Shown here: positions 3,192-39,763 of the stretch, in pieces
Position numbering within the stretch: the stretch's first letter is position 1
How the letters are laid out: the number at the start of each line of letters is the position of its first letter
Virus record (IMG/VR): IMGVR_UViG_3300011116_000574
Span: 36,658 to 100,657 of that record
Direction: 5' to 3' (one strand)
Origin: a virus
DNA length: 64,000 bases
Made by a program: the position numbers and the translations under genes
The notes under the pieces: generated by a model
What the model was told of the DNA's origin: nothing
The model's database searches: none
What the model saw: only the letters and a program-made list of their open reading frames with translations

Positions 3192-3296
3192 TTAGTAGTC
3201 CTCTTTCGCTTCTGGTACACTAGCACCGCATAGCATACAGGTTGGGTTGGTTCTGTCTGTTACATTGACAATCGGGTGAACTTTACACTCTTTCAT
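3192..3296 (-). CDS. tiny Cys/His peptide (MKECKVHP...CMLCG)
   Basis: 34 aa translated by hand, fills the gap between whiB and the 2985-3191 ORF. Confidence 0.5.
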   Translation of the reverse strand: MKECKVHPIVNVTDRTNPTCMLCGASVPEAKEDY

Positions 3297-3498
3297 TTTT
3301 CAATAACGCCTTTCGCTCGTCACCGAGTAGACCGCCATAAATACCGTCTACACTTTCATTTGAGAGTGCGAACTCTAAGCACTCTGATTTTACAGGGCAA
3401 GCGTTACACAATGACAACGCCAACGCCCTATCTTTTAGTTTGGCACTAAAAAAGATTTCTGGGTCTGCCTCTAAGCAATTTGCCTTATCCTGAAACAT
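3283..3498 (-). CDS. whiB: WhiB-family Fe-S transcription factor
   Basis: CLEADPEIFF...CNACPVKSECLEFAL...GIYGG...ER gives four Cys plus the G[IV][WY]GG turn. Start MFQDK follows GAAAGG. Confidence 0.93.
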   Translation of the reverse strand: MFQDKANCLEADPEIFFSAKLKDRALALSLCNACPVKSECLEFALSNESVDGIYGGLLGDERKALLKNERV

Positions 3499-3656
3499 AA
3501 TCTGCCTTTCGTTTGTTGGTAATACTATTATGACACACGCCACCGACATTTTTGGTAGCGACACGCACAATTTCAGAGATTTTTTTGGGGCTTCGTAATT
3601 TGACAAACCCCGAAGATCGGGGTACCCCGATCCCCCACGAAGTGGGGGCGGGAAGG

Positions 3657-4124
3657 CTAAAGTCCCAACCCTTCGGCAAGAGAGTTAGCAATTGCTCTAA
3701 CCTCTATTGCCCAATGCTCTGATAAGTCATCTTCAAGCATCTTTTCTGATAAGTCAAAGAGTTGTTTTACATAGTCTGGAACGCTGTCAGGTTGTGTTAC
3801 TAGGTCTTCATCTTCATCAAGCCAAGCATCATCTACATAGTCTTCATCATAGCACCAAGCGGATAGGTGGTGTTGTTCAATGATTGCCCAAGCAGGTGCG
3901 GTTGATTTACCATTTTTGTAGAATACACCTTCAGGCAGTTCAATTTCTAGACTGCCATTGTCTTCATTGTAAGCGTTGATTGCTTCAATACAAGGCTGAA
4001 CCATAGTCAATGGGATTGGTGGATAGTGATTGCTTGTTAGTTGAATAGCAATTTGCTGTTCAAGGCTAATGTCAATACCGTATTCTGATAGACTTGCTAA
4101 GTCGTTTGCTGTGTTGTTACCCAT
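3657..4124 (-). CDS. hypothetical protein (NHYPPIP...IIEQHHL)
   Basis: 155-aa ORF. Confidence 0.75.
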   Translation of the reverse strand: MGNNTANDLASLSEYGIDISLEQQIAIQLTSNHYPPIPLTMVQPCIEAINAYNEDNGSLEIELPEGVFYKNGKSTAPAWAIIEQHHLSAWCYDEDYVDDAWLDEDEDLVTQPDSVPDYVKQLFDLSEKMLEDDLSEHWAIEVRAIANSLAEGLGL

Positions 4125-4129
4125 AAGAG

Positions 4130-4273
4130 TTACCAACCTTTCTTGTGTTTTAGTTTGCGAGTGTAGGCTTTCTTATTTTTATGACCACCGCTTGCGTTGG
4201 AACGGCGTAATTCCAAGCGAGCCTGTAACTGTTCAGGTGTTGCCTGTGTTGCTGTAATCATTTTCTTTTTCAT
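4130..4273 (-). CDS. small basic protein, leaderless (RRSNAS...HKNKKAYTRKLKH)
   Basis: ATG lies 6 nt after TATTCT. 47 aa, very basic. Confidence 0.7.
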   Translation of the reverse strand: MKKKMITATQATPEQLQARLELRRSNASGGHKNKKAYTRKLKHKKGW

Positions 4274-4462
4274 ACCTAAAGAATAGCACACCTCACCGAC
4301 AATTTCCAGCATAACCCAGAGATTTTTTTGGAGTGTCGTAATTTGACAACCCCGCTCTGGCGGGGTATCCCGATCAGCCAGCTTTGTCAAGTCGGCTGTC
4401 GGTGTGTCTAATCTTTTTCGCTAAGAATTATGGCGATAAATTGCAATAGCATATAAATTAGT

Positions 4463-4996
4463 CTATTCATGTGAACCCCTGTAAATTATCCAGATTAGTG
4501 CTTGTGTTGTGCGAGGTGTTAGCCCCATTGCCTTAGCAACATCTTTAACCGCTTGTGCCATTTCGCGGTATTGTGTTTTATTTGGTGCATTGGTATCTAG
4601 TCCACCTGCGTAGCACATCCATACATCTATCGTTACCGCATTTTCATCGCCAGCAATTGCACGAGCGAACGCATTAGTTTTTAAGCCTTTAAGTGCATTG
4701 AACCCTAGCACTAAACTATTTTGTGCCATAACTAAATTGTTTTTTAGTCCTGTCGCTTTTCCTGTGTGTGCGAATTCTAACGCTTGCACAACATTTCTTG
4801 CCCAACGCTGACGAGGTGAGAATGATGAAACAACACTAGCACCATTTTCAATAGTTGCTTTTATGCCACGACTAGCAAGAATACGCACAACATCGTGTGC
4901 CACTAATTCTGCATCTGCATACCATTGCGTAGCCAATTCAATTTGGGTAGCGGTTGCCTTTTTTGCAATTGCGAGGTAGTGGTTGAAGTAATCCAT
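4463..4996 (-). CDS. putative HhH-GPD-like DNA glycosylase-fold protein
   Basis: WY...SP-x2-W-x2-N...K-x2-AF...GD-x2-AVTIDVW...QA-x2-W pattern. Confidence 0.55.
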   Translation of the reverse strand: MDYFNHYLAIAKKATATQIELATQWYADAELVAHDVVRILASRGIKATIENGASVVSSFSPRQRWARNVVQALEFAHTGKATGLKNNLVMAQNSLVLGFNALKGLKTNAFARAIAGDENAVTIDVWMCYAGGLDTNAPNKTQYREMAQAVKDVAKAMGLTPRTTQALIWIIYRGSHE

Positions 4997-29917: not shown

Positions 29918-32900
29918 GTGGTAAATCGTATTGACATTCAAGTTAATGCCACGGGAAACTTTGGTCAACTTCATGCTCAAATAGCGGAGTTAAAGGCTGC
30001 AGTTGCACAACTGCAGTCTAAACCACTTTTAGGAGATACTGGTAGGGCTACTGCTGCTCAACTTTCTCAAATACAAACACAGTTTGACAAGATGCTTTTG
30101 GCAACAAGAGCATTTAATGTTGAAACTGTAAAGATGTCAAACTCTATAGATAACTTTGGAAATAGATTACAGGCAGGAAAACTACACTTCTCTGAGTATG
30201 CAAGAATGTACCGTCAGACAATGAAGGGCATGCGTAACGAACTTGACGCACTTGCAGATTCACAAGCAAGAGTTGCAAAATCGGTTGTTCTTCCAGATGC
30301 ATTAAGAACTGGTTACGCTAGAGTAATTACAAATCTTACATCCGACCTTAAATCACTTAATGCTGCAGAAGAAGCAGCAATAATAAAAACAAAAGCTTTA
30401 AACTCTGTTATCCATGGAATGGGAACATCTTTGGTTAATATGGGTAAAAATACACAGTGGGCTGGTCGCCAGCTTACTGTTGGTCTTACCGTTCCAGTTG
30501 CAGCATTTGGCGCAATGGCTGCAAAAGTATTTAAAGATGTAAATACAGAACTTACAAGAATGCAGAGAATGTATGGTACTGGTTTATCTCTGCCTAGCGA
30601 ACAAGAAATAGCAAAAGTATCTACCGCAATTATAGATCTAAGTAAAAAAGTTGCAGAAAATATGGGTATTGCCCAAAAAGAAACTGTTACTGCTGCTGCT
30701 AATTTTGCTGCTGTTGGTACAACTGGAGATGCACTTATTGTAGCAACAGAACAGGCTATGCGACTTTCAAAACTTGGTGCCGTTAATGCTGACACCGCAC
30801 AAAAAACAATTACATCTTTGCAGACAACATTTAGGGTAGGCACTAAAGATGTTGCTGAAGCAGTAAACTTTTTGAATGATATTCAAAAACAGACATCCAC
30901 AGACTTACAAGATCTAACCGATGCAATTCCTCGTGTTGGTCCAATTGTATCTCAACTTGGTGGAACATATAAAGACACCGCAGTTATGATGGTTGCCATG
31001 AAAGAAGCTGGTGTTCCAGCAGCACAATCTGCAAACGCAATCAAATCCGCAGTTGCGTCTATGATTGGTCCAACTCGTCAAGCCAGGGATGAGTTTGAAA
31101 AGTATGGAATTAGTCTAACAAAAATTAAAGATGATACTCAGGGTAATCCAATTAAAATGATTGAAGCACTTCAGACTTCTTTGCAAAAATTATCACCACT
31201 TGTTCAAGCTCAGTTAATTGAAAAACTATTTGGTAAGTTTCAGTTTGCTCGTGTGACTGCACTTATTAACAATCTTGGTGCTGCAGGAAGTCAGACACAA
31301 AATGCTTTTCTAGTAGCAAAAGCTAGTGTTTCAGAACTTGCAAGACTAGCAGACTCAGAAATGAAAATTGCTACTGAATCAACAACAGCAAAGTGGTCTA
31401 GAGCACTAGAAGGATTTAAATCAACCTTGCTTCCTTTGGGTGAAAAGTTTATGAAATTTGGAACCAAAATCTTAGACTTCTTCTCTAAAGTAATGCATTT
31501 CTTAGATAGATTTAAACCTTTAGAAAACCTCTTAGTTAATGTTTTGGGTGGAGCAGCAATAGTTGGTCCTATTCTTATGCTAGTTGGTTTGTTTGGAAAC
31601 CTTGCTGGTAACATAATTAAGGGTGTAAACTACTTCAGAATGTTTGCTCAAGGGGCTAAAGATGGCGGAATTTTAGCTGGCTTTAAGAGCATGGCTAACT
31701 TCTTTGAAATGATTAACATTGAAACACTTGCATCTTCAAAAAATATGGATGGTCTTACAACATCTACTCAAAAAACCGTAGAGGCTTTTGCTGTACTTAA
31801 TCAAGAAATTGGAATTATGACCAGAAGTCTTAATGAAGTATTTGCTCGTAGCACTAGAATGCCAATAGTTGCATCTCCATATGCACAACAAACATTGGCA
31901 CAATTACAGACAATAAATCCCGAATATGTTGGCGGAGTAACAAAGGGACTAGAAAGACCACACATGTTCCCTGCTGCAAGACTTTGGGAAGGTTGGGCTG
32001 CAAATGAAGGAAACATACAGGGCAGAGTGCCAACGCTAAACGCCTTTTTACAAAATAGAGCACTTAATCCAACAATGGAGGCTCAGGAAAACTTTATGAG
32101 AGGTGGAATGCCAGAACAATGGGGTGCTCCAGTTCCATCAGGTGGTTTAGCTGCTCAACTTCAAAAAGAATACGGAACCGAAGATGTTATTCACGGTCCA
32201 AAATTTGGTCTTTCAAAAGAAGATGTTTACTCAAGAGGTTTTCAAAAAATAGAAAACATTAGGAGTAAAATACTTGACGAAAGAATAGCTGCAGATAGTA
32301 AAGTAGCAATAGAGCTTGCAAAAATTGACGCATTGCCAGAAGAACAAAAAGTTCAAGCTTTAACACAAATTATTCAGAAAGTTACATTTACTGAAGAACA
32401 ATATTTCAACAACCTAATTGAATCATTAGTTCAAACTCAAGCTTTACTTACCGCTCCAGAAGAAATGCTAAAGGCTGTAGACACAAAGGTTAAAACAGTC
32501 CTTGCTGACCCAACAATTGAAAATAAGTCTGTTGCTATTCAAGCAATACTAACCGAGTTTAACGCAGACTTTAAACTTCTTGGAGGAACAGTAGTTGAAG
32601 AAATAACTAAATATAGAACTTTAGTTCAACAGACAATACTCAGTACCACATCCACTTTTGAAACTGCCATAGCAGCAGCTAATTTTAGGGCTGGTATAGT
32701 TGCTAGTGCCGAAATGTTTGGCGGGGTAAGAAAAGGTGCTTTAGGAAGATTTGTCAGTATGGACAAACAAGCTTTATCACAATCAATATTAATGGCAAGA
32801 GATATTCCAAAAGGTTTCCAAACTGGTGGAGCAATTCATGCACAAGACGGTGTTTGGGTTCCAGGAACTGGCTCTGGAGATAGAGTTCCTGCAATGCTTG

Positions 32901-35900
32901 AGCCAGGAGAATTTGTTGTTAATCGTAATGCTGCTAAACAATATGGCGGGTTACTAGAACATTTAAACTGGAATGCTGCTCCAAGATTTGGAACTGGTGG
33001 AACTCCTAGTCCTACATCTGTTGGAATTAGAGGATATCAAAATGCTGGAGATGTAGAAAAGCCTAGGGTTAAAGCTTGGGTACCAAAAGATTTACTTGGC
33101 TTATCTAAAGGAGAAAACTTTTTTGCTCGCGACATGTATTCTCCAGGAAGCCAATTTCGAAGAATATTGTATGGTCCGATTTTAGATCAATTAAGAAATC
33201 AAGGCTATAAAGATGATGTTATTGAAAGAATTAAAAAAAGTTTTGACTCAGACAGAAATTTAAGATTATATGAGGATAGGTCTGCTTTATCAGAAGCACT
33301 TTCATCAGTAATTAGAAGAGGTAATCCATATGGAATAGACATAAGGGCTTTTTCAGAGGATGCTCGTGGAAGAATTATGGCAACAATTGAAAACGAAAGA
33401 CTTAGAACACACGAAGTTCATGATTTCAAATACTTTGACCCTAATGCACCAGTAAGGTTTTCACCAACAAGAGGCATGCCATCAATATTTAAACCTCTAA
33501 GAAAATTGAGTTTTGATGAAGCATATGGAGGAGATATAGGTTGGGTTAGAAAGCTAGTCCCAAGTCTAGCTGAAACATATATGTTAGCCCCATGGAAAGC
33601 CGATGATTATTTATTAGAAAAGCATGGGGCGCATATACTCTCTACAGCTCGTACACCACGCATAACTGTTGCTCAAAAAGGCGGTGGAATTCCAGGATAT
33701 CAAAGCGGATTAACAGTCCCAAGTATGGCATCTTTAAATAGAGAAGAACAGCAAGCTTTGATGGAAGAATATATTCAAAAAGCCCTACGCCCATCAAGTG
33801 CATTAAGTTTGTTACAAGAAGAAATTTTTTCTGCTGTTAGCCCATCTCAATTAGAATTGATACAAAAAGGTTATGGACATGAAGTTTTGCAATACAATTC
33901 AAATCTTGCAAAAATATTAGAACAGTACACTTTTAATGAAAAATCATTTGTTCTTCGACCAGGATATACTCCGCAAAGAGAGAGCTTTAACCTTTTCAAT
34001 ACATTGGGTAAAAATGAAAGATTCCATATGGGCATGAGCAAAACTCAATTTGAAACTTGGCAACCAACATCAATGTTTTCTACTAGCGAAAGGTCTCCTT
34101 TATTTACTAGAACTTTGGCTCAGGCTATCAAAGAGCAGGGCAAGGGAATTGGAAGTATTGGAGTTGTTCCAGAAGAACTAAGTTTAAGTCCTTTTAGTGA
34201 AAAAATGTATCAGAATTTAAGAAGACGGGGAATGGGAATAGAAGTTACAGGTAACGAGCCAGACTTTAGATCAACCCTATACGAAACAAATGATATTGAT
34301 TTAGAAGAATCAAGAAATACAACAAGACATATTTTGGATAGATTGTTGAGAAGAATAACAACTGACAAACTTTACAATAACTCTTTTACTTATAATTCTC
34401 AAAAACCTATTAGTGGTCAGCCTGGTGCTTATAGCATTAGTCGTGGTTTTGTGGATCAAATGGATGTTCAACATAGAATTCCAGAATTAGAAGCAAGAAC
34501 AACCATGATGAGATTCTTGAGACAAGGTATGTTTAAGCAAAAGGGTGGTGGAATTCCAGGATATGAGCAAGGTGGTGGTCCTACATGGATGGCTAGAGGC
34601 AATCCATATACAGAAGCACAGTTCCAACAATCTTTAGAATCTTGGATTAGACCAGTTCTTCACGGAATGGCTCCTTGGAATAATCCAGAAAAAGAAACTT
34701 ATCGACCAATGGGAGAATTATACAAAGGTTTCTACAGAGACATATTTAATGATCAGATGAGAAATATTGGTAGACAAGATCTTCTAAGAGCAATGGTTGT
34801 AGATAATGTTAAGGGCGGAGCAAACATGCACCCTTGGCTTACAAATATGGTAAATGCAGCAGAAGATCGCTATTACCCACCAGGCTTTCAGGGAATTAGG
34901 GTTCCAGCTATGGAAAATATTCAAGGTCCATGGGTAGCAAAAACAACAAGACCATTTACATCCTTTACTGACATTAAGGATACCAGCTTCTTGAAGAAAA
35001 GATTTATGCCAGACTTTGGAGATAAAAGATTCTGGAATGCAATGAATCGCGGAAACAAACTTCCATTTTTCTTGCATGCAATGACTGGACCAGAAACTAT
35101 GGGTCTGCCAGTTTCAAAATTATTTGCTGGACAAACTTACTATGGAAATGAAGGCGAGTATGTTTTACCACAAGGTCAAAAATTCCCAATGACGGGATAC
35201 AGTAGTGACCTTGCTACTAGATTACCAATAGTCCATTCTATTGCTCCAGGCTCAACTAAGATGATTGGCGGGATGAGAATTCCTGTTGCTCAAACTGGCG
35301 GTATGATTCCAGGATTCCAAGAGGGATACACAGATTATCTTGGCTCTAAAATTACAGGTCCGCTAGGATATGCTGTTCAGAGCGGAATTACGGGGACATA
35401 TAATCTAGAAACTAGCACAGGACCACAAACAGCTTATCTGAAGCAAATGTTTGAGCCTGGAATGTTTGATTATGGCGAAGCTCCAGTTAATAAAAGAGAG
35501 ATGGTTATGGAAGCATTCCTTAACCAATTACAAAGAGGCTTGGGTGGGTCTCAGGCTGCTATAGATCAAGTGTATTCAAGATTAATTGATCCATCTGGCG
35601 AAGGAGCATTAAGAGAAACCTCTGTTCTAAGGTCAAAGTTTTTGGAAGGTTTTGAAACTTACAAGAGTTCTGGATTATCAACAGCAGTTGGCGTAGAAGA
35701 TTTTAAGGGCAGAATAGATCCTCAACAAACATTCAAAAGGTTTATGGAGTCAGCACTTATTGGTAATGAAGATCTCCATGATGAAAACTTTGGCTATGTA
35801 GGCAAAACACCAACTGTTGTTGATAGTGGTATAACCGCTATACACAAACTATTAAAGGGTTATAGTGGATTTGATAATACTATATCTGAGCATGTAAACC

Positions 35901-38900
35901 TTGGAAATATGCACGATATGCGTAAAGCTGCAATGGTGGCAAAAACTTTACTTCAAGAGCAGGGAATCAGTATTGAAGAATTTAGTAAAACTCATATTGA
36001 TAGTTTAAGGTCAAAACTTTCAGAGGAACTTATTCATAACGCATTATTAAAAGCAACTGGCGGAGTCCCCGAATTAATGACCGTGTTTGATGAACTTACG
36101 CAAAAAAGCTATGGAGCAAATTTTGTTCCATCAATCACTAAAGTTTTGCACAAAAGACTTGATAGTTTAGCAAGGTTTGCAGATCCCACAAATCCTATGT
36201 CTGGAGCATTACCAAAATCAACTACACCACCACTTGCATCTAACATTATGAAAGGTTTTATGACCACTAGACTTCAAACTGGTGGAAGTGCTTGGGTTCC
36301 AGGATTTGGCGAGGGCGATAGGGTTCCAGCCATGCTTGAACCTGGTGAGTATGTAATTAATAAAAAAGCTGCTAAAGCATATGGCGGTTTACTAGAAGAT
36401 ATTAACTGGAATCAAGCCCCTAGATTTGAAACTGGAAATGAAGTTGGCAATAGACAAACTAGAAGAGGAAATGTTCCAATTGCTGTTACAAAAAACCAAG
36501 TTGGGGCAAATATTAAAGAATTTAATAATATGATGGCGGGTGTTCCAAGAATTGGATCAACATTAATTGCTGCAGGACAATCATTAAAAGTTTCAATTCT
36601 TAATGGAGCGCAAGCCTTAAAACAATCTGCAATAGCAACCAGAGAAGCCAACATGACTAGAGGAATGATTGCAAAAAATGAACTTAGAGGATTAAAGGAT
36701 AGTGTTGTTAATGGTGTAAGAAGTGGTGTTCTTGGTGCCGCTAAAGCTCCTGGAGCAATGATGAGAGGAATTGGAAGCTTTGGATATAATTCAATAGCAT
36801 CAATTAAAGAGGGTGGTAGAAACTTTGGTACGGGCTTTATGGGAGCAAGGCAAATGCAACCGATCCTTGGCGCAGACGGAAAGCAAGTATTTGATGAAAA
36901 AGGAAATCCTCAAAGCCGTTATGCAAAATTTAGTGAAGCAAAAGGTGTCGGTGGAAAGCTTGGCTATGCTTTAGGAAGACAATCTAGACCAGGAATGGGT
37001 TCTATGATTGGTGGTCAAATGCTTGGTATGGCTGCCATGCAAATGGCTGGAGGAATGCAGGAGGGTACTGCAAAATCTGCACTGTCTGGTGCAGGAATGG
37101 GTGCAATGCTTGGCGGTATGACCCCACTTGGTCCAATTGGTGGTGCTGCTATAGGAGCAATTGCATCGGGCGCATATAGCATGTATAAGCAGCATGAACA
37201 AAAACTTAAAAATGCAGCAACTCTAGTCAAAGACTCTTTAAATATGAGTGCTATTGCAATGCAACACTTAGGTGTTCAGGCTAGAGATTTTTCAAATATT
37301 ATGATTGATTCTTCTGGAAAAGCAACAAAAGCTACATCAGAATTTCAAGTTCAGGTTAATGATTATAAAAATGCTCAAGATGAAGAAACAAAAACTGCCG
37401 TTCAAGGAATGAAAGAAAAATTAGAATCGGGAGATATTTCTGGACTAAAAGAAATTATAAAAACAAGAGTTGCAACACAAATGAGCAGCCTTGTCAATCC
37501 AAATGATCCAGAAGCTAGAAAGAAAGTAATTCAAGACAACAAGGCTTTTGTTGCTTCATCTGGAGCAGGAATTGCAACACAAAGAGAAATTTTTTCTGGA
37601 ATTTCTTCAAAAACAACTCCAGAGTCAGCTATAAAACAACAACTAAAGCAGCTAGGTCTTTTTGACTTTAATTCTGTACAGAAAACTCAAATGATATTAC
37701 CAGCAGGAGTAAACAGGAAAAAATATCTTGAAGAGCATCCTTTAGCTGGACAAGATTTAACTATTGCAAATTTAGCAGCGGGTACAAATATGGGTGCTAA
37801 TACTACTCAAAAAATACAAATGACTAAAACCGCTAGTTCAATAACTTTTGACGAATCAAAAATGCAAGCTTTAATTACACAACTTCAAACAAAAACAGAT
37901 CCAATGCAACTTGGGAAAATGCTTGGACCATTAAATAAAGCAAGCGGAGATGTAAAATTGTTTAAAGAATCTATGAGCACTGTTGGTGTTGGTGGTGCTG
38001 GTTGGCAAAAACTTTTAGAAAGTGTAAAGAAGATGGATCCAGCTTTAGCAAAACTAGATCAACAATACGGAAGATATATTACAGATGGTACTCAAATAAT
38101 TAGAATAAATAATCTTATGTCTGCTGGAATGACACAATTAAATATTTCTCAACAAAGGCAAATTAATACTAATCCCAACTTAATTTCTGGATTAGAAGCT
38201 CAGTATAGTGCACAAAGTGCCGTAAGTGGCGGAATAGCAGATTGGATTTCAAATGCAGCACAGTATGACGCACAACAAAATGATCAAGCAGATGCTGCAA
38301 ATAAAGCAGCAGAAGCTTTACAAAGTCAAAAGGATCACATAAACAATTTAATTGATGGTCAAAACAATTATATTAAGTGGCAAAATAAAGCTATTGATGG
38401 TGTGCAAAAAGAAATGGATGCAAGAAACAAACTTGCAGATACACAAAATAAAGAAATCGAAAGAGAAAGAACACTAGCAGACCTAAAAGACTCTGTAACG
38501 GCTGCAAGAGCTTCTGGAAACTTACTTCAAATGGCAAGTGCTCAAAGCAAGTATAACGAAGAATTAGCTAAACAAGAAGAAGCTAAGAAAAAAGAAGCAG
38601 CTGATGCAGCCGATGAAAAGAAAATTGCAGCCTATAAAGCAAATATTGATAAAGCAAGTGCTCAAATTGAAAAGTATAATAAAAAACTTGAAGATCTGGA
38701 TAAAGCTTCAAATGACACTACAAAAACACAATCTAAGAACTGGAACACTGTTTCTGGAAAAGCGCATAAAGCAGAAAACGCAGTTAATGATGTTGGCACA
38801 GCCATTAAAGATGTTGGAAGTGGTGGGACATGGACTAGCCTAAAAGATTTCCAAGAAAAAGTTCTTGGTCAAAAAGGTATGAAGGGTAAATTAGAGGCTG

Positions 38901-39763
38901 CTGGATTATCTTCAGATCAAGTAAGAGATAAGATAAAAGAGCTATACACAAGTTTTGGGGGAAGTAAACAGGCAAAAGCAAATGAAGCGTTAGTTTCTAC
39001 TAAAAATGCAATCCTTGATATTAAAGATGCATCAGAAAAAGCTTTAGCTGTTCAACTTTTCACCAATATGTACACAGCAGACCCAACTGGAAATGTTAAA
39101 GACATGTCAAAGAGAGCAATGGCTGCTGCACATCAATTTACAGCTGCTACAAGTAATATGCCAACATCTCCTCCCACCCCAACACAAGACATGAAAAATG
39201 GTGCTGGTGACGGAAATTGGTATCAAGATCCAAAAGAAAAAGATTATTACTGGTTGTGGAAAGCAAAGGATAAAAAATTCTTTGAGACTCCTTCAGACAA
39301 AGCTGAGATGAAAGAAAAGGAAAGATTTGGATGGCACGACTATAGCGGTGGTAAATGGGGCGCAACAATTGAAGGAAAAGCTTTTGGTGGAATAATACAT
39401 GCAGCTACTGGTATAGGACCAGTTATGGGTCCAGGTGGACCAAGAGATGATTTAATTCCCGCCATGCTTTCAAATGGTGAGTATGTAATTCAAGCATCAT
39501 CTGTAAATAAATACGGAAAGACTATGATGGATGCAATTAATGGAGGAAACTTTTCTCCTAGATACGCAACTGGTGGTATAATGAGATCATATAGTGTTGG
39601 CGGGGATATTAATAACAATAGTGTTCTTCCAGCCCCACAGTACAATGTTAACATTGTTGTAAATGGCGCAAATGCAAGCGCAGATGATATAGCCGATATG
39701 GTTGCAACTAGATTTAGAAGAGAGACAGAAAGTATGTCTTCAGGTAGGAGTTTGAGAGCATAA
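29918..39763 (+). CDS. tape measure protein with internal cargo domains
   Basis: 3281 aa. TP901-type core (aa ~180-500), three PAML-x-x-GE[FY]V motifs, position after the chaperones. Confidence 0.92.
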   Translation: MVNRIDIQVNATGNFGQLHAQIAELKAAVAQLQSKPLLGDTGRATAAQLSQIQTQFDKMLLATRAFNVETVKMSNSIDNFGNRLQAGKLHFSEYARMYRQTMKGMRNELDALADSQARVAKSVVLPDALRTGYARVITNLTSDLKSLNAAEEAAIIKTKALNSVIHGMGTSLVNMGKNTQWAGRQLTVGLTVPVAAFGAMAAKVFKDVNTELTRMQRMYGTGLSLPSEQEIAKVSTAIIDLSKKVAENMGIAQKETVTAAANFAAVGTTGDALIVATEQAMRLSKLGAVNADTAQKTITSLQTTFRVGTKDVAEAVNFLNDIQKQTSTDLQDLTDAIPRVGPIVSQLGGTYKDTAVMMVAMKEAGVPAAQSANAIKSAVASMIGPTRQARDEFEKYGISLTKIKDDTQGNPIKMIEALQTSLQKLSPLVQAQLIEKLFGKFQFARVTALINNLGAAGSQTQNAFLVAKASVSELARLADSEMKIATESTTAKWSRALEGFKSTLLPLGEKFMKFGTKILDFFSKVMHFLDRFKPLENLLVNVLGGAAIVGPILMLVGLFGNLAGNIIKGVNYFRMFAQGAKDGGILAGFKSMANFFEMINIETLASSKNMDGLTTSTQKTVEAFAVLNQEIGIMTRSLNEVFARSTRMPIVASPYAQQTLAQLQTINPEYVGGVTKGLERPHMFPAARLWEGWAANEGNIQGRVPTLNAFLQNRALNPTMEAQENFMRGGMPEQWGAPVPSGGLAAQLQKEYGTEDVIHGPKFGLSKEDVYSRGFQKIENIRSKILDERIAADSKVAIELAKIDALPEEQKVQALTQIIQKVTFTEEQYFNNLIESLVQTQALLTAPEEMLKAVDTKVKTVLADPTIENKSVAIQAILTEFNADFKLLGGTVVEEITKYRTLVQQTILSTTSTFETAIAAANFRAGIVASAEMFGGVRKGALGRFVSMDKQALSQSILMARDIPKGFQTGGAIHAQDGVWVPGTGSGDRVPAMLEPGEFVVNRNAAKQYGGLLEHLNWNAAPRFGTGGTPSPTSVGIRGYQNAGDVEKPRVKAWVPKDLLGLSKGENFFARDMYSPGSQFRRILYGPILDQLRNQGYKDDVIERIKKSFDSDRNLRLYEDRSALSEALSSVIRRGNPYGIDIRAFSEDARGRIMATIENERLRTHEVHDFKYFDPNAPVRFSPTRGMPSIFKPLRKLSFDEAYGGDIGWVRKLVPSLAETYMLAPWKADDYLLEKHGAHILSTARTPRITVAQKGGGIPGYQSGLTVPSMASLNREEQQALMEEYIQKALRPSSALSLLQEEIFSAVSPSQLELIQKGYGHEVLQYNSNLAKILEQYTFNEKSFVLRPGYTPQRESFNLFNTLGKNERFHMGMSKTQFETWQPTSMFSTSERSPLFTRTLAQAIKEQGKGIGSIGVVPEELSLSPFSEKMYQNLRRRGMGIEVTGNEPDFRSTLYETNDIDLEESRNTTRHILDRLLRRITTDKLYNNSFTYNSQKPISGQPGAYSISRGFVDQMDVQHRIPELEARTTMMRFLRQGMFKQKGGGIPGYEQGGGPTWMARGNPYTEAQFQQSLESWIRPVLHGMAPWNNPEKETYRPMGELYKGFYRDIFNDQMRNIGRQDLLRAMVVDNVKGGANMHPWLTNMVNAAEDRYYPPGFQGIRVPAMENIQGPWVAKTTRPFTSFTDIKDTSFLKKRFMPDFGDKRFWNAMNRGNKLPFFLHAMTGPETMGLPVSKLFAGQTYYGNEGEYVLPQGQKFPMTGYSSDLATRLPIVHSIAPGSTKMIGGMRIPVAQTGGMIPGFQEGYTDYLGSKITGPLGYAVQSGITGTYNLETSTGPQTAYLKQMFEPGMFDYGEAPVNKREMVMEAFLNQLQRGLGGSQAAIDQVYSRLIDPSGEGALRETSVLRSKFLEGFETYKSSGLSTAVGVEDFKGRIDPQQTFKRFMESALIGNEDLHDENFGYVGKTPTVVDSGITAIHKLLKGYSGFDNTISEHVNLGNMHDMRKAAMVAKTLLQEQGISIEEFSKTHIDSLRSKLSEELIHNALLKATGGVPELMTVFDELTQKSYGANFVPSITKVLHKRLDSLARFADPTNPMSGALPKSTTPPLASNIMKGFMTTRLQTGGSAWVPGFGEGDRVPAMLEPGEYVINKKAAKAYGGLLEDINWNQAPRFETGNEVGNRQTRRGNVPIAVTKNQVGANIKEFNNMMAGVPRIGSTLIAAGQSLKVSILNGAQALKQSAIATREANMTRGMIAKNELRGLKDSVVNGVRSGVLGAAKAPGAMMRGIGSFGYNSIASIKEGGRNFGTGFMGARQMQPILGADGKQVFDEKGNPQSRYAKFSEAKGVGGKLGYALGRQSRPGMGSMIGGQMLGMAAMQMAGGMQEGTAKSALSGAGMGAMLGGMTPLGPIGGAAIGAIASGAYSMYKQHEQKLKNAATLVKDSLNMSAIAMQHLGVQARDFSNIMIDSSGKATKATSEFQVQVNDYKNAQDEETKTAVQGMKEKLESGDISGLKEIIKTRVATQMSSLVNPNDPEARKKVIQDNKAFVASSGAGIATQREIFSGISSKTTPESAIKQQLKQLGLFDFNSVQKTQMILPAGVNRKKYLEEHPLAGQDLTIANLAAGTNMGANTTQKIQMTKTASSITFDESKMQALITQLQTKTDPMQLGKMLGPLNKASGDVKLFKESMSTVGVGGAGWQKLLESVKKMDPALAKLDQQYGRYITDGTQIIRINNLMSAGMTQLNISQQRQINTNPNLISGLEAQYSAQSAVSGGIADWISNAAQYDAQQNDQADAANKAAEALQSQKDHINNLIDGQNNYIKWQNKAIDGVQKEMDARNKLADTQNKEIERERTLADLKDSVTAARASGNLLQMASAQSKYNEELAKQEEAKKKEAADAADEKKIAAYKANIDKASAQIEKYNKKLEDLDKASNDTTKTQSKNWNTVSGKAHKAENAVNDVGTAIKDVGSGGTWTSLKDFQEKVLGQKGMKGKLEAAGLSSDQVRDKIKELYTSFGGSKQAKANEALVSTKNAILDIKDASEKALAVQLFTNMYTADPTGNVKDMSKRAMAAAHQFTAATSNMPTSPPTPTQDMKNGAGDGNWYQDPKEKDYYWLWKAKDKKFFETPSDKAEMKEKERFGWHDYSGGKWGATIEGKAFGGIIHAATGIGPVMGPGGPRDDLIPAMLSNGEYVIQASSVNKYGKTMMDAINGGNFSPRYATGGIMRSYSVGGDINNNSVLPAPQYNVNIVVNGANASADDIADMVATRFRRETESMSSGRSLRA

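Follow-up and report, generated by a model that had tools for sequence, protein, structure and literature searches.

Can a phage tape measure protein (TMP) carry an ADP-ribosyltransferase (ART) among its internal segments? The question is raised by a stretch of viral DNA of 64,000 nucleotides (the window), which corresponds to bases 36658-100657 of the 100.7-kb IMG/VR virus record IMGVR_UViG_3300011116_000574, a record estimated to be 81% complete. The window contains the gene of a giant TMP, one segment of which, here called the module, had been predicted from the letters of the DNA to be an ART-like domain. Our analyses indicated that the module is a discrete, selected unit found only inside giant TMPs, and profile comparisons indicated that its last ~45-55 residues carry, well beyond chance, an ART-type signature of ARTT (ADP-ribosylating turn-turn) loop, ExE and beta5-6. 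On balance we lean slightly towards reading the module as a new, highly divergent family of R-S-E mono-ARTs (C3/VIP2/Alt type) carried as TMP cargo.

ARTs of the R-S-E clade (VIP2/C3/Alt-like) have a [YF]RG motif, an S-T-S-type strand and the block E-x-E-[VI]-L-L-P-R-G-x-x-F. In this clade the catalytic Arg lies on beta1, the S-T-S strand comes ahead of the phosphate-nicotinamide loop, and E-x-E (or Q-x-E) opens beta5 behind an ARTT loop that bears an aromatic residue. The three motifs to which the original prediction had drawn attention, GFQGIR (TMP aa 1656-1661, nt 34883-34900), PFTSFT (aa 1679-1684, nt 34952-34969) and YGNEGEYVLPQGQKF (aa 1742-1756, nt 35141-35185, with E-G-E at 35150-35158), were all recovered in frame and in this order, and the plus strand from 34580 to 35287 is open, with no stops across 236 codons. 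A single occurrence of the pattern [EQ]xE-[VILYFTM]-[VIL]-LP-x-G was found when the window was translated in six frames, and none in 200 residue shuffles. A motif so long and specific, with a chance expectation below 0.005 per window, speaks against a different explanation of the locus, namely that the module is a conserved cargo or structural part of the TMP with another fold, having in common with ARTs only a short convergent aromatic-x-x-E-x-E-h-h-L-P-x-G motif. Such a module could serve in envelope penetration, channel formation, host-factor binding or a different enzyme activity; we judge this explanation unlikely without dismissing it.

Two reference profiles were used for comparison, one made from T4 Alt and 46 Alt-type ARTs and the other from 32 diverse non-Alt viral PF03496 ARTs. 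Alignment by hhalign of the 12-member module family with the non-Alt ARTs gave a score of 37.5 (probability 68.7%, P 4.5e-5), while the 80 column shuffles scored 12.8 +/- 2.5 and never exceeded 21.4. The score with the Alt-type ARTs was 31.3 (P 6.6e-4), the corresponding values being 14.1 +/- 2.7 with a maximum of 23.7 for 150 shuffles and 14.9 for the reversed query. Two subfamilies of the module also matched the ARTs when aligned separately (P 5.9e-4 and 1.4e-4). A hidden Markov model (HMM) of the module reached at least 2 bits with 70% of 47 true ARTs and with 1.7% of 1,880 shuffles; the top true-ART scores were 14.4, 11.8 and 10.3, the shuffle maximum was 5.0 and the other proteins of the window scored 3.5 or less. 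Along the TMP, high scores were obtained only where the scanned part covered the ExE block. The hmmsearch match to one ART (L090) ran through the final strands of the module, and this coverage is not what a short convergent motif in another fold would lead one to expect.

Further evidence came from a scan of 2.9 million viral contigs of IMG/VR, in which GNEGE-x-x-LP-x-G was found at eight loci. Five belonged to the module family, two were short spurious frames and one was a bona fide PF03496 ART (L096, E 2.8e-16), so that the sole unrelated real viral protein with this motif is an ART, again a point against another fold. The Scabin-like family PF22596, which we take to be a DNA-ART family, fell on the ExE block in two of six members (E 0.09-0.14, 12.5-13.1 bits against a cut-off of 27, profile positions 75-105 of 130), and gave no match with the window's own module.

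Several results weigh against an ART. The profile check against ADPrib_exo_Tox was negative: PF03496 matched neither the module nor the whole TMP at E <= 1, none of six members at E <= 10, and nothing in the whole phage record (gathering score 23.4 bits), while the positive controls T4 Alt and L096 were matched at 126.9 bits (E 4e-38) and 59.9 bits, respectively. The window's module found nothing at E <= 10 in Pfam, PHROGs and NCBIfam, and the PDB sequence search, whether started from the one sequence or from the profile of the family, returned chance matches only; bL28 (E 0.26) and XRE regulators (E 0.65) were rejected as such. By the Pfam criterion the module is outside PF03496, and its proposed membership of the R-S-E clade rests on the ExE motif, which it has. 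True ART families matched each other by hhalign at P 9e-34, which places the module far outside normal PF03496 variation. When the ExE block was removed, the scores fell to the null, to 13.0 in one comparison and in the other to 12.4, where the null was 11.5 +/- 2.1; the ART statistics therefore rest on the block that first drew attention. Only 42 columns were aligned at the default stringency of hhalign, and the N-terminal two thirds of the module showed ART similarity at the null level. In the protein atlas the window's module adjoined viral PF03496 clusters (score 0.94; 14/30 matches), a match resting on only 162 common features, and L006, a member 35% identical to it, scored 0.81 with no family assigned. 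The spacing of the motifs is unusual for ARTs (Arg-Ser 18-21, or 50-58 for another candidate, and Ser-Glu 65-73), and hhalign was inconsistent as to the residues matching R and S-T-S. No ADP-ribosylhydrolase or macro domain was found encoded in the phage record, at its 81% completeness.

Much of this is what another fold would predict: detectable ART similarity confined to ~45-55 residues, the failure of every ART model and PDB sequence to match, an atlas result that was not repeated with L006, and atypical motif spacing. AlphaFold2 models made from 7- and 14-row alignments, with the window's module and the shorter L004 variant as targets, were unusable (mean pLDDT, the predicted local distance difference test, 33.1 and 33.9); their mostly helical structure before residue 190 would also suit another fold at this low confidence. 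The prediction of an ART-like domain held in part. There is a separate conserved module and its ExE block is significantly ART-like, but no curated ART model matches it and its N-terminal two thirds are without signal.

The positions of the module, its borders and its candidate motifs are collected below.

Coordinates in the window of the TMP gene, the ART-like module and its parts (residues numbered from the first residue of the module or of the TMP, as given)
Feature	Position (nt)	Strand	Remarks
TMP gene, 3,281 aa	29918..39763	+	open reading frame (ORF) list, GTG start as listed
Upstream linker, TMP aa 1541-1554, QKGGGIPGYEQGGG	34538..34579	+	recurring Q-x-G-G / GG-x-IPG[YF] linker
ART-like module, TMP aa 1555-1790, 236 aa	34580..35287	+	homologous as one unit in P0003-P0009, L001-L014
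Invariant Arg (module R70, TMP R1624) in [LF][LM]-R-A	34787..34789	+	invariant in A1, A2, A4
GFQGIR Arg (module R107, TMP R1661)	34898..34900	+	aligned by hmmsearch with the R-G Arg of ART L078
R-P-F-T-S-F-T (module R124 to T130), candidate S-T-S strand	34949..34969	+	R124, F126, T127, S128 invariant
ARTT-loop / ExE / beta5-beta6-like block (module L181-Y207)	35120..35200	+	only region aligned confidently to ART profiles
C-terminal 29 residues, candidate beta7-beta8, ending HS-x-x-PG-x-TK-x-I-x-G-x-x-[IV]-P	35201..35287	+	H219, S220, P223, G224, T226, K227 invariant
Downstream linker, TMP aa 1791-1804, AQTGGMIPGFQEGY	35288..35329	+	recurring linker type

From the sequence we infer that the whole module adopts an ART fold, with its split beta-sandwich NAD-binding core, in which the nicotinamide adenine dinucleotide (NAD) site would be formed by E1745 and E1747 (ExE), S1682 (F-T-S) and one of R1624, R1661 and R1678. 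The ExE part is the clearest. The motif [YW]-G-N-E-x-E-x-[VI]-L-P-x-G is invariant in the 12 distinct members and aligned with the ExE of the ART profiles at high per-column confidence; N190, E191, E193, L196, P197 and G199 never change, whereas the x of ExE does (G, K in L001), and the third residue ahead of the first Glu is aromatic (E191/E193 of the module being E1745/E1747 of the TMP). The 43 residues that follow ExE match the R-S-E ART layout, as does the order R ... F-T-S ... E-x-E. Both the length of the module and this tail suit ART domains, and the upstream F-T-S-x-[ST] and Args are invariant and collinear with the ART motifs, all of which argues against another fold.

The assignment of the Ser and Arg residues is less clear. 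F-T-S-[FY]-[ST] is invariant in the members, F or Y replacing the middle residue of S-T-S, and the bona fide ART L096 shows the same variant, as A-F-T-S-V-S. The S-T-S of the ARTs was placed by hhalign either on F-T-S (in the run with the N-terminal part) or on K-R-F-M 14 residues later (in two runs). When the N-terminal part was aligned alone, f-S-T-S was the partner of F-T-S-f, and the G-x-R region came close to y-R-G; other runs shifted these assignments. All 12 distinct members keep three Args, which lie -1/-2, -15/-19 and about -49 to -59 relative to F-T-S. None of them is preceded by an aromatic residue as in the R-S-E type ([YF]-R-[GS]), and different alignments choose different Args. 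The most distant, R70, is a candidate for the catalytic Arg or for an Arg of the N-terminal helix; its hhalign partner was the catalytic Arg of Alt or the helix motif N-x-x-L-R of other ARTs. The concern that the first Arg is substituted or shifted was eased, since an Arg is kept before F-T-S in 12/12 distinct members, 19 residues away in the window group and 15 in the other groups. In the MAFFT alignment the GIR Arg falls in more than one column, and a 3-4-residue indel hides its conservation there.

Uncertainty about the catalytic Arg, together with the F or Y in the middle of S-T-S and the extreme divergence from all ART families, would suit a descendant of the ART fold that no longer transfers ADP-ribose, either a pseudo-enzyme that serves for binding or as a scaffold, or else an NAD+ glycohydrolase depleting NAD+. 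We consider such a descendant rather improbable. Both Glu residues of ExE, the Ser and the three Args are invariant across members only 35-42% identical while the x of ExE varies, a pattern to be expected where catalysis is retained, and the ratio of nonsynonymous to synonymous substitutions (dN/dS) of 0.14-0.19 points the same way.

That the gene encodes a TMP, as had been predicted, was borne out by Pfam, PHROGs and PDB alike. PF10145 PhageMin_Tail (TP901 type) matched TMP aa 241-439 (E 8.3e-29, 101.3 bits against a cut-off of 33.2), eleven TMP PHROGs matched its N- and C-terminal parts (best E 1.2e-99), and the family profile found the solved TMP chains 8zdo_S, 9g8s_w and 8rk3_A in PDB. The module, called the third segment in the original prediction, was found to be the third of four segments set between recurring linkers. 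Linkers of the Q-x-G-G / GG-x-IPG[YF] type recur in the TMP at aa 1253, 1541, 1792 and 2120. A motif of ~55 aa, GD-x-VPAMLEPGE ... IN-x-x-x-APRF, is present three times, at aa ~990, ~2136 and ~3180 (32813-33001, 36272-36436 and about 39400-39620); its first two copies bracket the four cargo segments, which the linkers at aa 1253, 1541 and 1792 separate from one another, and the third copy stands at the C end. The first residues of this bracket motif resemble the Q-x-G-G linkers, and homologous TMPs have one to three copies of it. Internal paralogy of the four cargo segments was considered and rejected, the segments being unrelated to one another. For the fourth (TMP aa ~1805-2118, 35327-36271), the homologue in P0005 weakly matched Pfam HipA_C (E 3.9e-4, 20.6 bits, under the cut-off of 30.5).

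When the module was searched against 1.84 billion representatives, only six true clusters came back, with proteins of 1,819-4,885 aa, PF10145 being present in four of them. P0006, P0010 and P0012, repeat proteins summing 10-33 sub-threshold stretches, were rejected as artefacts. Scans of IMG/VR and of JGI metagenomes added loci L001-L014, which belong to the same three subfamilies. No near-length relative was found with the family profile among 5.8 billion proteins at E <= 10, none among 185,579 prokaryote genomes, and none among GenBank phages by blastn and tblastn. The module is bordered by Q-x-G-G on both sides in every homologous TMP, and its position after the bracket motif differs, being third in the window's TMP, second in P0007 and first in P0008 and P0009. 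Comparison with distant TMPs revealed that the parts in common are the N-terminal core, the bracket motif, the module and the C end; the neighbouring cargo segments of the window's TMP are not among them. BLAST alignments with these proteins stop at aa ~1541 and ~1802-1806, and in P0004 and P0005 the sequence beyond the downstream linker is unlike that of the window. The module forms an autonomous, exchangeable cargo unit of the TMP.

Identity of the module among members is only 35-42%, with about 60 columns of the family alignment invariant and the ExE block the most conserved part. The dN/dS values cited above were obtained with three relatives at 88-89% identity. In the comparison with P0003, no part of the TMP is better conserved than the module (95% identical, against 54% for the C part); this contrast and the dN/dS together indicate that the module is functional in its own right. 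They also leave very little room for an ordinary tape-measure spacer that bears the motif by chance and has no separate function, which we regard as very improbable indeed. TMPs do tolerate long, poorly conserved inserts, and the C part that is only 54% identical to P0003 could be taken as an example, but the module is under purifying selection, is common as a unit to distant TMPs that lack the neighbouring segments, and has its many invariant columns. As a separate observation, TMP aa 2190-3150 (36485-39367) are 54% identical to the closest relative, P0003, and the cargo modules 86-95%; the presumed ruler part of the TMP evolves much faster than the cargo.

Among known systems, T4 Alt (PF03496 ADPrib_exo_Tox) resembles the proposed cargo enzyme in being packaged in the virion and entering the host with the DNA. 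Its E-x-E-V-I-L-P-R-G block has, as in the module, an aromatic residue at the third position ahead of the first Glu. A long spacing of ~85 aa separates S-T-S from ExE, and the Arg that stands four positions upstream of the first S-T-S Ser is reminiscent of the R-P-F-T-S of the module. In contrast, Alt is a separate head-internal protein while the module is an internal part of a TMP, and the similarity of the module to Alt-type profiles, at the P of 6.6e-4 given above, is limited to the ExE block. C3 and VIP2/iota-type domains comprise an Arg, an S-T-S strand, an ARTT loop of the form aromatic-x-x-[EQ]-x-E and h-L-L-P-x-G-x-x-h, within ~210-240 aa of which ~40 follow ExE. Compared by these motifs, the module shares their motif order, size and post-ExE length, and differs in having F-T-S-[FY]-[ST] for S-T-S and in its spacings.

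The viral ART L096 (IMGVR_UViG_3300050120_000091, 520-aa ORF, 3209-4771) has the variants of the module, A-F-T-S-V-S-T and G-G-N-E-G-E-I-I-L-P-R-G. It differs from the module in its canonical V-F-R-G Arg motif, its N-terminal Y-x-x-x-x-Y-x-x-I-N helix and its short spacings (R-S 26, S-E ~45). Its ART is a C-terminal domain (aa 328-483), not a TMP module, it reached only 10.3 bits with the module HMM, and it was a singleton in a close-relative scan of IMG/VR. L096 possibly bridges the canonical ARTs and the TMP module family. Most of the canonical viral ARTs compared are C-terminal parts of larger ORFs, and PF10145 was not found in five IMG/VR records with canonical ARTs embedded in larger ORFs. 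Two reports describe fusions of ARTs with a virion structural protein, predicted to be virion components, in the MuF-VIP2 proteins of actinobacteriophages and the MuF polymorphic toxins (PMC7302621; PMC12226406). There the ART forms the C-terminal end of a head protein and is one that Pfam recognises, whereas the module lies in the middle of a tail protein, between linkers, and is invisible to Pfam.

If the module is an ART, its position suggests how it would act. Since the TMP occupies the tail lumen and leaves before the DNA does, infection would bring the module to the host envelope or into the cytoplasm. It would travel unfolded or extended through the tail and then refold in the host, either cut free at the Q-x-G-G linkers or still joined to the TMP. 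Once refolded it may ADP-ribosylate a host target in the service of host takeover or counter-defence, as T4 Alt does. Both the activity of the module and its delivery into the host are what we infer from its place in the TMP and its motifs.

ExE, not QxE, is typical of arginine-specific protein modification in the R-S-E clade, and by likeness to Alt, VIP2 and iota the ExE of the module suggests arginine-directed protein modification. RNA polymerase, ribosomes or defence proteins, which had been proposed as targets, are a matter of speculation. A bolder form of the ART reading, which we put forward tentatively and hold to be doubtful as a whole, would be that this is a hitherto unrecognised ART family, undetected by curated models, that exists only as an exchangeable cassette in giant TMPs of uncultured phages. 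The TMP would then be an effector polyprotein whose several unrelated enzyme modules, four in this case, are threaded through the tail, released or exposed at the conserved Q-x-G-G linkers, and act in the host before phage gene expression.

Virion-delivered ARTs are already known from the phage head, namely T4 Alt and the MuF fusions, and no published description of an ART inside a TMP was found in the literature searched. If the module is active, the tail lumen would offer ready-made host-modifying enzymes a second way into the cell, the length of a TMP would be more than a plain measure of the tail, and a globular domain would need to cross a tube of ~4 nm unfolded and then refold. An ART family wholly missed by current annotation pipelines would also be implied. 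Should the module prove not to be an ART, it would remain a mobile part of TMPs under strong conservation.

The TMP gene lies downstream of genes coding for the portal, the capsid, an Ig-domain protein and a small ORF, and upstream of those for minor tail proteins, one of 1,499 aa adjoining it. The Ig-domain protein beside it is a candidate tail protein. No ORF of sheath size is listed between the capsid and TMP genes, and the morphology is therefore probably siphovirus-like. A single strongly hydrophobic, transmembrane-like stretch was seen at TMP aa 535-570 (31520-31627; Kyte-Doolittle mean 2.3 over 19 aa), and a long Gly/Met/Ala-rich, glycine-zipper-like stretch lies downstream of the cargo cassette at aa 2359-2423 (36992-37186); both are possible membrane-insertion parts. 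An antisense ORF of 97 aa is located inside the module at 34784-35077 on the minus strand and is probably spurious, because the plus-strand frame is under purifying selection.

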